Origin: an uncultured Verrucomicrobiae bacterium
Lineage (GTDB): Bacteria; Verrucomicrobiota; Verrucomicrobiia; Limisphaerales; Palsa-1400
DNA length: 64,000 nt
Direction of reading: 5' to 3'
Assembly: GCA_963764165.1 (NCBI GenBank)
Contig: CAVXRD010000001.1
Span: forward strand, 416,001 to 480,000
Part shown: piece by piece, positions 49,357 through 54,546 of the stretch
How the letters are laid out: every line of letters begins with the position of its first letter
Position numbering within the stretch: the stretch's first letter is position 1
Program-made: the position numbers and the translations under genes
Notes under the pieces: generated by a model
Told to the model about the DNA's origin: nothing
What the model saw: only the letters and a program-made list of their open reading frames with translations
Databases searched by the model: none

Positions 49357-51422
49357 ACCGGATTCTTATTGTTGACGATAAGGAGGAGAATCTTTATTAC
49401 CTCGAGGCTCTGCTGGCCGCCAGCGGCTACACGGTTGAATCCGCGCGCCACGGCGCCGAGGCGCTTGTCAAGGCGCGGCAGAACGCCCCGGATATTGTCA
49501 TCTCCGACCTGCTGATGCCGGTGATGGACGGCTACACGCTGCTGCGCCTTTGGAAGGCCGACGCGCGGTTGAAATCGGTGCCTTTTATTGTTTATACGGC
49601 CACCTACACTGATCCGGAGGACGAAAAACTGGCGTTGAGCCTGGGCGCGGATGCCTTCATTCTCAAGCCGTCCGAGCCGGACGATTTTCTCGCCAAGCTG
49701 CGCCAGGCGGAGACCAACGCGGCCTCCACTCATCCCGCTCCGCCCAAGCGTCCCGAGGGTGGCGAAAAGGAGCTGCTCAAGGTTTACAGCGAAACGCTCA
49801 TCCGCAAGCTCGAGGAAAAGACGCTGCAATTGGAGGAAAGCAATCGCGCCCTGCAACTGGACATTGCGAAGAGGACGAAAGCGGAGGAGGAACTGCGCTG
49901 GAAGACGGCCTTCCTCGAGGCCCAAGTCGACTCGTCCCTCGACGGCATCCTGGTGGTTGACAGCGAGGGGAAGAAATTGCTCCAAAATCTGCGCATGATC
50001 GAGTTGTGGAAAATCCCGCCCCCCATCGCCGAGAACAAGGATGATGCCGCGCAAATCGCCTACGTCACCAGCCAGACGCGGAACCCCGCTGCGTTCGCCG
50101 AAAAGGTCGCCTACTTGAATTCCAATTCCAACGAAGTGAGCCAGGACGAAATTGAACTTTTGGACGGCACAATATTAGACCGGTATTCCTCCCCGGTGCG
50201 CGACAAGGGCGGGAATTATTATGGGCGAATCTGGGTCTTTCGCGACGTGACCCGCCATCGCAAACTGGAAGACCAATTGCGCCAGTCGCAAAAAATGGAG
50301 GCCTTCGGGCAATTGGCCAGCGGTGTGGCCCACGACTTCAATAACATCCTGATGGTGATCCAGATGCAGGCGGAATTTTTGAAAATGGCGGAAAATCTGT
50401 CGTTGAAGCAGCTCGATTGCGCGGACGAAATTGTCAAGGCGACCGGGCGAGCCGCCAATCTCACCCGGCAACTGATGCTCTTCAGCCGCAAGCAAGCGAT
50501 GCAGCCCCAGGACGTCCGGCTGAGGGACGTTCTCGAGAGCATGACCAAAATTTTGCATCGCACGCTCGGCGAGCACATTCACCTGCACTTCAAGTTCGCC
50601 CCCGAGCCTTTGTATGTTCATGCGGACTCCAGCATGATTGACCAGGTTCTGCTCAACCTCGCGGTCAATGCCCGCGACGCCATGCCGAAGGGTGGCGACA
50701 TGACGATCGAAGTCTCCGCGTCCGAATTTGATGAGGTCTCCGCCATTCAAGACTCGCAAATTCGGCCTGGCTCATTTGTCTGCTTGAGCGTCACGGACAC
50801 CGGCTGCGGCATCCCGCCGGAAATTCTGCCGCGCATTTTTGAGCCGTTTTTCACCACCAAGGAAGTCGGCAAGGGCACGGGGCTTGGCTTGGCCACGGTC
50901 TTCGGCATCGTCCAGCAGCACAAAGGCTGGATTTATGTTTACAGCGTGGTGGGCAAGGGAACTGCTTTCCGGGTTTATTTTCCGCGCGTGCAGAAGATTT
51001 CCGACGACAAGCCCGCCGTTTCCTCCCGATTTCCCGTGCGCGGCGGCCATGAGACCATTCTGGTCGTGGAGGACGATCCAGCCGTTCGTTTGACAGTCAC
51101 GACGACTCTTTCGCGGCTCGGCTATCATTTGCTGGAAGCGTCGTCCGTCGCCGAGGCGCTTGAAGTCTGGGAGGAGCATCGCGCCGAGATTGCGCTGGTT
51201 TTGACAGACCTCATCATGCCCGGCGGGATGACTGGGAAGGATTTGGCGGAAAAGATCGCCGCCCGGGGCGCGAAGCAGAAATTTATTTTTGCCAGCGGCT
51301 ATAGCGCGGACATCACGGGCGATGATTTTGTCCTGGAGGAAGGCGTCAATTTCCTGGCCAAACCCTTCGACGCGATTCAACTGGCGCAGACGATCCGGAA
51401 TCAGTTGGATCGGCGCTCATGA
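49353..51422 (+). CDS. Hybrid sensor kinase/response regulator (REC-PAS-HisKA-HATPase-REC)
   Basis: [56 protein letters not shown]. Confidence 0.95.
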
Positions 51423-52259
51423 TTTTATGTCGCGCACCTGGAAGGCGACGCAGCCGATAATGATAAGCGTGAAATTGTAGCCGCACAAAATGCTGAGGGA
51501 TTCGAATATCTCCGACCACGGAATGCGCTGGTCGAAGATTTTCATCCAGCAATCCATGTGATGCGTGAAAAACCAGTCTTTCAAATCGTGGAACACTGGC
51601 ATGTCCTGGACGACCCTGCTTGTCAATACGAACGATATCGCAAGGATGGTCGCGGCCGCCGGCTTCACGTTGAAGCACGAAAACATCAGCGCCCATCCCA
51701 TCGTCGTGGCGGCGCCGACCGTCATCATCAAAATGGCAACGACGAAGCGCCCCCAGCCTTCGCCAGCTTCGTAAACACCGAAAATGTTGTCGGGCGGGAA
51801 ATAAACGAACAGTCCACCGGTCGGAAACAAGCAGGACGCCACCGCGACGCTGATGACGCCGAGTGAAAAGGCCAGCATGAACGAAAAGATCAGGCCCGCC
51901 ATCCATTTCACCATCGCCAGCCGGAATCGCGAGATGGGGCGTGAGAGTATCATGCGCAATGTGCCATCTTCCGCCTCCTTCGCCAGAAGGTCGCCACCGA
52001 CGAGCGCCACGTAAATCGGCAGCAGCAGCAGCGCGATGGGAAAGAGCGAGGCCACGCACATCGTCAAGTTGGTGATGAACGGCGCGGGATCGTAGCCATT
52101 CAATTGCAGCATGAACGTCAAGTCGTGCCGCGGCCCCTTCGTGTAGCGCAACATCACGAGAATGAGAACCTCCGCCAGCAGGAACGCGCCGAACCCGATG
52201 TAGGTTCGTTTCTTCCCGAACATTTTCCGAAGCTCGTTGCGAAGTTGGAAGTAGAACAT
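51417..52259 (-). CDS. ABC-2 type transporter permease
   Basis: ELRKMF, GDLLAKEAEDGTLRMILSRPISR.....K, six TMs, terminal F..RDI. Confidence 0.9.
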   Translation of the reverse strand: MFYFQLRNELRKMFGKKRTYIGFGAFLLAEVLILVMLRYTKGPRHDLTFMLQLNGYDPAPFITNLTMCVASLFPIALLLLPIYVALVGGDLLAKEAEDGTLRMILSRPISRFRLAMVKWMAGLIFSFMLAFSLGVISVAVASCLFPTGGLFVYFPPDNIFGVYEAGEGWGRFVVAILMMTVGAATTMGWALMFSCFNVKPAAATILAISFVLTSRVVQDMPVFHDLKDWFFTHHMDCWMKIFDQRIPWSEIFESLSILCGYNFTLIIIGCVAFQVRDIKS

Positions 52260-52295
52260 TGGCTTACAAAATCACTCGAATCACAAACAAGGCTT

Positions 52296-52360
52296 GGCAG
52301 GGCGGGGCTCCCGCAGAGCCATTTGCGGAGGGGGTGGCTCGGCGTGAGCCTCGCCCGACC
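52296..52360. repeat. REP family 1 inverted doublet inside the ABC operon
   Basis: GGCAGGGCGGGGCTCCCGCAGAGCC (52296-52320) and GGCTCGGCGTGAGCCTCGCCCGACC (52336-52360). Confidence 0.85.
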
Positions 52361-52388
52361 GGTCTCACACGTTGATTGGCGCACCCGG

Positions 52389-53276
52389 TCATTTCTTCAT
52401 CAACCCCAGGTAAAAGCTCTCCAGGGTTTCCTCCTCGGGGGCGATTTCAAAAACCGCATGCTTGCGCTCCACCAATCGTTCCACAATTTGATTCGTCGCA
52501 ACTCCGGGTGAAGGAAGGATGAACTGACCTTCGCGCTCATTGGCGATCATGTTCGACTCGCGGAGAATTTGGGTGGCTTCCACAAAATTCCCAGCCTTCA
52601 GCCGAATCCACCCGCCGCGAGAGCGCGTCTCGGAAATGCTGCCCTGGAAAACTTTGCGCCCTTGGTTCATCACCGCAATCGAATGGCAAACCTGCTCCAT
52701 CTCCGCCAGCAGATGTGACGAAACCAGAATCGTAAGACCCAGTTCGCGATGCAGCCGCTGAATGGTCAACCGCATTTCGTGGATGCCTTCGGGATCGAGT
52801 CCGTTGCTGGGCTCGTCAAGTATAAGCAGTTCCGGGTTGGGCAGCAGGGCCTGGCCGAGCGCGAGGCGCGCCTTCATGCCGTGCGAATAGGTTTGCACGC
52901 GGTCCTGAATGCGTTTGCCCAGCCCAACCCATTCCACGACCTCCTGGATGCGCGCCTTTGAGGTCGGCGCGGTATAGAAGCTGAGAATCTCGAGGTTTTT
53001 CCAGCCGCTTAATTCCGTGTAAAAGGCGGGCGCCTCAAAAATCGCGCCCACTCGTTGCAGCGCTTGGCGGCGGTCGCGCGTGATGTCATAACCGCAGACG
53101 GTGAGTTCGCCGGAAGTCGGCCAGACCTGTCCGAGCATCATGCCAATGGCGGTGCTTTTTCCCGCGCCGTTGTGGCCGAGCAGCCCGAAAATTTCGCCCT
53201 TGGGCACGGCGAGCGAAACATCAATGACCGCCGGCTTCCGCTTAAACGTTTTGCTGACGTTCCGCAATTCGATCAT
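52389..53276 (-). CDS. ABC transporter ATP-binding protein
   Basis: GHNGAGKST Walker A, YSHGM signature variant, LILDEP Walker B, VSSH. Confidence 0.95.
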   Translation of the reverse strand: MIELRNVSKTFKRKPAVIDVSLAVPKGEIFGLLGHNGAGKSTAIGMMLGQVWPTSGELTVCGYDITRDRRQALQRVGAIFEAPAFYTELSGWKNLEILSFYTAPTSKARIQEVVEWVGLGKRIQDRVQTYSHGMKARLALGQALLPNPELLILDEPSNGLDPEGIHEMRLTIQRLHRELGLTILVSSHLLAEMEQVCHSIAVMNQGRKVFQGSISETRSRGGWIRLKAGNFVEATQILRESNMIANEREGQFILPSPGVATNQIVERLVERKHAVFEIAPEEETLESFYLGLMKK

Positions 53277-53923
53277 TGCGCGCCTGGAAAGATGAGAAGG
53301 TTTTTGATGTGGCTGTCCGCGTAAAGATAGTTGACAGCGTGCTTCGAGCCGAGAAGGGAATGAAAACTCTGCTTGTCAAACACGACAGGGATTTTCGAAT
53401 TGCCGGGAGTCATGCCCATGACTTTCAGTTGGTTCGCGTTTTGCCCGTTGAGAAGATTGTTCCAGGAGTAACTCGAACCCGTTAGCTGGAAGATTTGCTG
53501 GTTGTCCGACGGGCAGCGCAGCACATTAGTCGAACCCAATTGCGGAGCCAGCACGACATCGATGGTCGCAAGATTCGTGTCCGCGTTGGTCAGCGGCATA
53601 TCGTACATGGTCGGCATGATGTTGTGGCTGTCGTCCACGTACATTTGAAGCGCGACACCTGTCTGGTGAAGGTTGCTTTGGCAGACCGCCGAATGGCCTG
53701 ATTCCTTGCCCCGGCCCATTGCGGGCAAAATCATCGCGGCAAGAAGTGCGATGATGGACATCACGACGAGCAATTCCACCAGTGTGAACGCCGAATAATT
53801 TGGCAGGGCGGGACTCCGTCGAGCCCTGAAATTCCGGGAGGTGTCGGTTGCGAAAAACGCATCAAATCCAGTCACGGCTCGACAGAGTCTCGCCCTGCCG
53901 AATTTATTATATAAACCACGCAT
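53273..53923 (-). CDS. Prepilin-type N-terminal cleavage/methylation protein with H-X9-DG-like C-terminus
   Basis: SA-FTLVELLVVMSIIALLAAMILP, C.SNLHQ.G.A..MY..D, CPSD, SY, H...NYLYADSH. Confidence 0.9.
   Translation of the reverse strand: MRGLYNKFGRARLCRAVTGFDAFFATDTSRNFRARRSPALPNYSAFTLVELLVVMSIIALLAAMILPAMGRGKESGHSAVCQSNLHQTGVALQMYVDDSHNIMPTMYDMPLTNADTNLATIDVVLAPQLGSTNVLRCPSDNQQIFQLTGSSYSWNNLLNGQNANQLKVMGMTPGNSKIPVVFDKQSFHSLLGSKHAVNYLYADSHIKNLLIFPGAQ
53802..53899. repeat. REP family 1 inverted doublet within the prepilin coding sequence
   Basis: GGCAGGGCGGGACTCCGTCGAGCCC (53802-53826) and CGGCTCGACAGAGTCTCGCCCTGCC (53875-53899). Confidence 0.87.
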
Positions 53924-54546
53924 TAATGCCCTCCCCGGAACAATCTCCCTGTCTCCATGTTCTTCTGGATTTCCTCCAAAAGCGGCGCAAGCTCAGCCTT
54001 CGTCTCGGCCGAACTGCTGCTGTAAACCGAGTTCAATCCGATGGTCGTCACCCGCTGCTGCAATTCCGGGCTTAGCACTGGCGGCGCATTGCTGCCAGAG
54101 GGGGCGTTGGTGGAATTGTCCGTGGGACTCTCCCGCTGTTCCCGAAGTCTTTTGACGGCGTCAGCAATGGCGCGCTGGCGTTTGTCCGCCGGCTGCTGTT
54201 CAAACGCTGTCAGCATCTGATGAAATCCCGACGGCAATGTTGCGTCGAGAAATTCGCCTTTCTCCGCTTCAGTCATCTCATCGAACCACGGCTCCCACAT
54301 GCGTTCGATGCGCGAGTGGTGGCGATCCTCCGCCGACAGGGCGTTGATTTTATCGGCCAGGCGGCGCAACGCTTTGGCGCGGTCGGCGGCGGACAATTTG
54401 GAGAGATCGGTGCTTTCGAGGTAGGCGCGCAGCTTCTCGGGCGTCATTTTGAAGCAACCCGCCAGGACGTAGCCGCCCAGTGCCAGCAGCCAAACGGCGG
54501 CAATGGCGGCTGCGGCCAATTTTAACGGCCGATAACGCGCGTTCAT
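53923..54546 (-). CDS. Membrane-anchored all-helical hypothetical protein
   Basis: N-terminal TM; recurring LSAADR / LSAEDR / MTEAEK / QPADKR helix-cap units; stop overlaps the next start (TAATG). Confidence 0.82.
   Translation of the reverse strand: MNARYRPLKLAAAAIAAVWLLALGGYVLAGCFKMTPEKLRAYLESTDLSKLSAADRAKALRRLADKINALSAEDRHHSRIERMWEPWFDEMTEAEKGEFLDATLPSGFHQMLTAFEQQPADKRQRAIADAVKRLREQRESPTDNSTNAPSGSNAPPVLSPELQQRVTTIGLNSVYSSSSAETKAELAPLLEEIQKNMETGRLFRGGH

Follow-up and report, generated by a model that had tools for sequence, protein, structure and literature searches.

In the window, the whole 64,000-nucleotide stretch of DNA analysed here, a dispersed GTAG-type REP doublet lies in what should be the cleaved leader of a pilin-like protein, and we believe that this leader is probably a neutral, frame-filtered harbour for repeat DNA. 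The predicted leader is of class III (prepilin) type; it spans 53789-53923 on the minus strand, comprises 45 residues with a net charge of +7 and ends in Ala. Translated from a start codon coupled to the gene upstream, the doublet likely supplies 33 of these 45 residues, and prepilin peptidase is predicted to remove the leader after the Ala.

Results

A pilin-like gene in a transporter gene run

The host gene (53923-53273, minus strand), read from the sequence as 216 aa, begins with an ATG that shares its A with the TAA of the preceding gene (TAATG), an overlap that the preliminary description had reported and that inspection confirms. A GGAGG at 53930-53934 on the same strand, 6 nt 5' of the ATG, is a putative Shine-Dalgarno-like site. 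The upstream gene (53923-54546, minus strand) encodes 207 aa with an N-terminal hydrophobic segment; it has no Pfam match and its function is unassigned, and of 161 distinct orthologous loci 149 have a homologue immediately before the pilin-like gene. Downstream, also on the minus strand, follow an ABC transporter ATPase (52389-53276), ATGA-coupled to the pilin stop, and an ABC-2 family permease recognised by domain search (51417-52259). This four-gene run (51417-54546) is conserved across the order and ties the pilin-like gene to an exporter, not to a pilus machine. The ATPase-permease spacer (52260-52388), only 1-3 nt long in most orthologues, is filled by a second palindromic doublet from a related repeat subfamily, outside the coding frame: its frame is closed and the permease keeps its own ATG. 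The window holds both states, a doublet in frame in the pilin leader and one out of frame between ATPase and permease.

The mature protein (53273-53788, minus strand) has 171 residues, with Phe at +1, Glu at position 5 and a long N-terminal helix. Its gene carries the type 4 prepilin signature (a leader ending in Gly or Ala, a hydrophobic stretch and Glu5), with scores of 30 bits against PF07963 (cut-off 21.2) and 21.1 against TIGR02532 (cut-off 16.3), and JGI annotations of its homologues call them prepilin-type and 'H-X9-DG' proteins. A model of the mature part (pLDDT 83.7) consists of a 51-residue N-terminal helix (residues 3-53) and a small head; the seven best Foldseek rows are all type IV pilins, all of them weak (E at least 0.12, none at or below 0.001). 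The gene had been introduced as a pseudopilin, a label that we drop, as only the generic prepilin cleavage/methylation models passed and the operon partner is an ABC-2 transporter. Models of type II secretion pseudopilins all scored below cut-off (GspG 28.9 against 88.85 bits, GspH 24.6 against 80, GspI 18.8 against 44.35), and the neighbours, an ABC-2 transporter and the 207-aa gene with no secretion operon, also speak against it. The product can be called pilin-like but not, on present evidence, a pseudopilin. The genome holds about 90 pilin-like genes, one complete PilD-type prepilin peptidase gene and 19 T2SSF-domain matches.

Against five short-leader relatives the mature part has a dN/dS of 0.126-0.156 and the flanking genes 0.10-0.14, values that are rough because dS is near saturation; against the closest DNA relative (L121, 85%, an alignment that reaches 97 codons and not the leader) it is 0.145. 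As far as codon comparisons can tell, the mature part is shown to be under purifying selection, like its neighbours. We therefore regard it as highly improbable that the insertion crippled a gene that is now decaying: the terminal branch is long (0.29, against 0.06-0.22 in congeners) and mature position 159 is Ser instead of a nearly invariant Gly, as decay would predict, but the ratios match those of the flanking genes. An assembly artefact at the junction, which we place in the same class, is countered by P0002, an independent ENA protein that carries the same insert.

The doublet and its family

The doublet proper is 98 bp long (53802-53899) and was delimited by arm search and folding as two inverted GYAG-tagged arms with a spacer. 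Leader codons 9-41 consist of this inverted repeat plus one base, in frame and exactly as first described: bases 53899-53801 encode GRARLCRAVTGFDAFFATDTSRNFRARRSPALP, after which come NYSA and, across the predicted cleavage site, FTLVELL. With their AATT flanks the arms (53797-53829 and 53872-53904) measure 33 nt and are 88% complementary, the RNA fold of the doublet has a z of -3.91, equalled in 0 of 200 shuffles, and the sequence on either side is A+T-rich (25% and 38% GC). Each arm reads GGYAG followed by an imperfect stem-loop, GYAG being a described variant of the GTAG tag (PMC3733652). Rfam covariance models gave no match at E <= 1 in 53600-54100.

The genome contains 52 matches to the arm when up to 2 mismatches are allowed and 96 when up to 5 are allowed, and the copies form 31 inverted doublets of 71-288 bp; the family pattern is present in 24 of the 61 genomes searched. 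Copies are dispersed and mostly extragenic, with 12 of 1441 runs of all repeat families lying deep inside called genes, a count made with a seed filter that favoured non-coding k-mers. In seven called genes (C1:692442, C2:1541208, C2:1649550, C2:2185081, C2:2608954, C2:3170919 and C3:141487) runs of repeat lie further than 120 nt from both ends; these genes may hold internal in-frame insertions or be miscalls.

The earlier designation of the element as a REPIN holds in part: the inverted doublet with spacer and hairpin is there, but a cognate RAYT was not found. No Y1_Tnp gene flanked by this family occurred among 10 such loci in the genome itself, an incomplete assembly, and 30 loci from 64 Y1_Tnp matches in five relatives, also incompletely assembled, yielded one lone arm more than 1 kb from the gene. 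At C1:293973-294206 a Y1_Tnp (RAYT-like) gene has doublets of another, ~120-copy family on both sides, and is likely an intact REP-RAYT cassette of that family. Three related Y1_Tnp genes, two apparently truncated or frameshifted, lie within 4.5 kb at C4:238114-242381, and a ~1.6-kb sequence with 27-28 near-identical copies (C1 ~66900-68550) is likely an insertion sequence.

Filled and empty leaders among close relatives

In four of four same-genus genomes searched, the orthologue has TGATG coupling, a leader of 8-10 aa and no repeat, as expected if the 33 residues are absent from orthologues, and no repeat-free orthologue among them has an equally long homologous leader. Two of these four genomes carry 26 and 41 copies of the repeat elsewhere. 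The distance from the upstream stop to +1 is 134 nt here and 23-29 nt in the same-genus orthologues, and the net gain is therefore 105-111 nt. This does not fit the clean 99-nt insertion into an ordinary 12-aa leader that had been proposed, the 12-aa 'empty' leader being arithmetic only. The A+T-rich flanks of the doublet align poorly with the short leaders, and no clean empty site could be reconstructed from 18 pairs of long and short leaders, because leaders share little beyond their start and final codons. Filled and empty sites both exist, but the leaders are too diverged to mark the boundaries of the insertion. P0002, which is 86% identical (by eye, 30/46 residues in the leader and 156/171 in the mature part), keeps the insert in frame in a 46-aa leader that differs by a one-codon indel.

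Long leaders across the order keep the frame

We analysed the 190 best-scoring loci (30 from one search, the best 80 of 274 and the best 80 of 408 from others, an alignment-based contig search among them) and left out 6 without a usable +1 motif, 23 duplicates, 12 without the upstream gene and 1 with an incomplete upstream match, which gave 148 junctions. The named relatives are mostly Verrucomicrobiota, several of them labelled Limisphaerales or Pedosphaera and a few labelled otherwise.

From upstream stop to +1 these junctions have a median length of 44 nt; 109 are short and 39 measure at least 80 nt. The expected frame-preserving bias is pronounced: in 37 of the 39 long junctions the pilin frame is open, whereas the two shifted frames are open in 9 and 10, and with both ends trimmed the figures are 37, 15 and 15 (p = 8e-10; here and elsewhere p-values overstate, since related genomes are not independent). 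The coupled start at the upstream stop is kept in 33 of the 39, and 31 fall in the coupled length class; the exceptions are two closed junctions and six without a coupled start. From coupled starts the longest leaders reach 99 aa, and the mature length stays within 167-181 aa in all 159 measured. On a tree of flanking proteins with 128 rows, the 36 long rows require 30 changes, against 31.6 for shuffled labels, which is close to random scatter; strong branches force 22 of the 30. Within the limits of such a comparison of genes, it is shown that leaders have been lengthened repeatedly and independently with the frame kept.

The inserts measure 80-466 nt, belong to several unrelated repeat families and occupy differing positions. 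A hairpin (z <= -2.5) occurs in 18 of the 38 inserts of up to 500 nt, against 1 of 54 short junctions, and all 18 hairpin inserts are open in frame (4 and 1 in the shifted frames). As only 18 of the 38 have a significant hairpin, many expansions must be other repeats or are unexplained. Short tandem repeats, several of them heptamer-like and sometimes inverted arrays, lengthen in frame the leaders of L023, L025, L066, L106, L173 and L200 and of the G004 locus L247. The close relatives L047 and L049 share the first repeat arm in the leader, as a single arm in one and within a full doublet in the other, which suggests in-frame decay or growth.

The only in-frame start codons 5' of the +1 Phe in our gene are the ATG, for the 45-aa leader, and a GTG within the left arm (53873-53875, minus strand), for a leader of 29 aa. 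It had been allowed that the true start might lie 3' of the doublet, where we find no in-frame start codon before the +1 Phe. That the main start is instead the GTG, or some non-standard codon, leaving the repeat partly or wholly untranslated, is very unlikely in our judgement. The GTG at 53875 is in frame, several orthologous inserts have an in-frame GTG or TTG near +1, and the principal survey of intragenic REPs cautions, in its available text, that a REP at the N-terminus often reflects a start codon wrongly annotated (PMC3733652). Yet in the predicted stem this GTG is base-paired, its position (Val here) is Leu in P0002, and a start there, which may at most be a minor one, would still leave 25 repeat-derived codons in the leader. 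Among the orthologues, 33 of the 39 long junctions keep the frame open from the coupled start onwards, which a downstream start would make needless, and in 15 of the 18 hairpin inserts no start codon follows the helix. We continue to read the doublet as probably translated from the coupled ATG.

Control junctions expand without frame bias

The two downstream junctions of the same gene run served as controls. Expansion by at least 40 nt was found in 13 of 139 loci at the pilin-ATPase junction and in 23 of 108 at the ATPase-permease junction, the latter about as frequent as expansion of the leader (39/148). Open frames showed no bias at either (8, 10 and 7 at pilin-ATPase; 11, 8 and 6 at ATPase-permease). 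Expansion left the downstream gene with its own start in 11 of the 13 loci at the first junction and in all 23 at the second, and a coupled open start spanning the insert was seen only once and twice. With expansion at all junctions and bias at one, junctions therefore attract insertions generally, and only those at the prepilin lie 3' of a start codon.

These data bear on the earlier suggestion that the hairpin tunes pilin translation, for which a co-opted structure would adjust pilin output relative to the operon partners by slowing ribosomes, damping coupled re-initiation or stabilising the message. We consider this unlikely. The hairpin is stable (see the z above), REPs within 15 nt of a stop are reported, in the accessible part of the study, to lower translation in E. 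coli (PMC12306157), and the distance from the upstream stop to a long helix exceeds 15 nt in 19 leaders out of 26 but at 7 control junctions out of 17, small numbers that could point to selection near the initiating ribosome. However, the helix here starts ~19 nt after the stop, beyond the 15-nt window of E. coli, 109 of 148 orthologues do without a long junction, and the inserts, which are dispersed on the tree, show free variation in repeat family, in length and in position. Nor is the peptide under visible selection: a positive net charge, present in 35 of the 37 open inserts, is no more marked than in their shifted frames, and leader charge and hydrophobicity show no selection relative to these (p = 0.74 and 0.71), which fits neutrality. 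Tuning found no support beyond the weak tendency in helix position, and the hairpin is most likely a passenger.

Repeats near the other prepilins of this genome

A motif scan of this genome gave 93 prepilin-like starts, or 91 after removal of one short product and one false motif. Repeats were defined as non-coding 14-mers with at least 10 copies, and the controls were 950 genes anchored by paralogue alignment, whose calls, from a hexamer model, are approximate. Repeats were not significantly commoner near prepilins than near other gene starts (13/91 against 84/950 within 150 nt upstream, p = 0.09). The expected frame bias, on the other hand, was found: upstream repeats were open to the anchor in 13 of 13 prepilins (8 and 4 in shifted frames) and in 20 of 84 controls (21 and 17). 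With starts inside the aligned core considered, translation through the repeat is forced in 9 of 91 prepilins and in 2 of 950 controls. The distinctive feature of prepilin repeats is an open reading frame through which translation has to pass.

In seven of the 13 repeat-bearing prepilins the start adjoins the upstream stop, giving leaders of 45-86 aa, and three of these seven lie beside T2SSF genes. The pilin-like genes at C2:2356122, C2:2356773, C4:219118 and C2:3056093, with upstream-stop-adjacent starts and inferred leaders of 68, 86, 46 and 76 aa, hold other repeat families, one of them two; T2SSF genes adjoin the first three. That such leaders form a general niche is borne out by recurrence in this genome and across the order but not in the same-genus genome G004, where this genome's repeat 14-mers occur in 0 of 34 prepilin upstream regions (30 of 45 matched loci).

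Discussion

We propose that repeats land near gene junctions, probably mobilised in trans by a RAYT-type transposase. Because the pilin start overlaps the upstream stop, DNA landing just 3' of that stop would fall within the leader. Insertions that break the frame or bear stops would be purged or repaired, whereas G+C-rich inserts that stay open would be read as Arg/Ala/Pro/Gly-rich, net-positive peptides suited to a cytoplasmic leader. Finally, the peptidase would cut after the Ala and the repeat-derived leader would be discarded. Family doublets are open in only 64 of 186 frames, from which about one in nine random insertions (~11%) would pass the frame-and-stop filter.

A stronger version, which we think doubtful, makes prepilin leaders a favoured reservoir: coupling would funnel junction-seeking repeats into them, where they are repaired into frame, and the hairpins so housed could set pilin stoichiometry. 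A rough estimate, multiplying 0.77 elements per non-coding kb by an assumed 4 kb of original leader and by the ~11% that survive the filter, predicts ~0.35 survivors, whereas this genome has 9-13. If this version is true, dozens of genes in each genome give selfish hairpins a place where they are protected, transcribed and translated.

On our preferred reading of a neutral harbour, the cleaved prepilin leader would be a class of coding DNA that is apparently filtered only for frame and stops. Such leaders could act as natural recorders of repeat insertion, and they are substrates at hand for probing what leader length, and how arbitrary a leader sequence, prepilin peptidase and the targeting machinery will tolerate. 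Software that calls starts or finds pilins on the assumption of a short leader will likely overlook such genes, or shorten them, in Verrucomicrobiota.

GTAG REPs and REP dimers within genes have been described by Di Nocera, De Gregorio and Rocco (2013; PMC3733652), whose survey, in the text available, has its highest number in the verrucomicrobium Opitutus terrae, with 70 intragenic rows. The likeness is close: GTAG/GYAG palindromes, often inverted dimers, in frame and adding 20-30 residues, in the same phylum; the family here may be one of the 24 in that survey. There, unlike here, the REPs sit in unrelated enzymes, and the mature protein retains the residues that they add. In the intragenic table of the survey no annotation names pilin, methylation, type II or type IV, and the GRAR peptide does not occur, although rows marked 'hypothetical' could hide pilins. 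The survey discounted N-terminal REPs as possible misannotated starts, a doubt that the coupling and frame tests presented here address, and we offer this locus as a controlled example to show that a REP at the N-terminus can be coding. A literature search for repeats in prepilin leaders found none; as most subscription journals were beyond its reach, absence from print is unproven.

The element also resembles REPINs as set out in the accessible text of Bertels and Rainey (2011; PMC3116915), having two inverted arms with a spacer, a hairpin and many dispersed, mostly extragenic copies, and the RAYT-like gene of this genome that is flanked by doublets of another family matches the arrangement of REPIN-RAYT systems. 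Unlike REPINs, the copy here is intragenic and no Y1_Tnp gene was found flanked by its own family. As for class III signal peptides, the part of the review by Pelicic (2023; PMC10191384) available to us describes hydrophilic leaders of variable length that end in Gly or Ala; ours likewise is hydrophilic, ends in Ala and is followed by a +1 Phe, Glu5 and a hydrophobic stretch. In contrast to the leaders of that review it is built from a repeat and has 45 aa, with up to the 99 aa of orthologues, and we claim no record length.

Finally, the palindromic elements of Rickettsia (Ogata et al., 2000, 2002; as summarised in the accessible parts of PMC10969869 and PMC3733652) are likewise palindromes inserted in frame and read as peptide. 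These elements are ~150 bp long, lie in unrelated metabolic genes and are kept in the mature protein, whereas in the genes studied here repeats of several families meet in a single portion of the protein, the one that the peptidase is predicted to remove. Intragenic REPs are already known; what appears to be new here, with strong comparative support for the feature itself, is the niche in a leader predicted to be cleaved.
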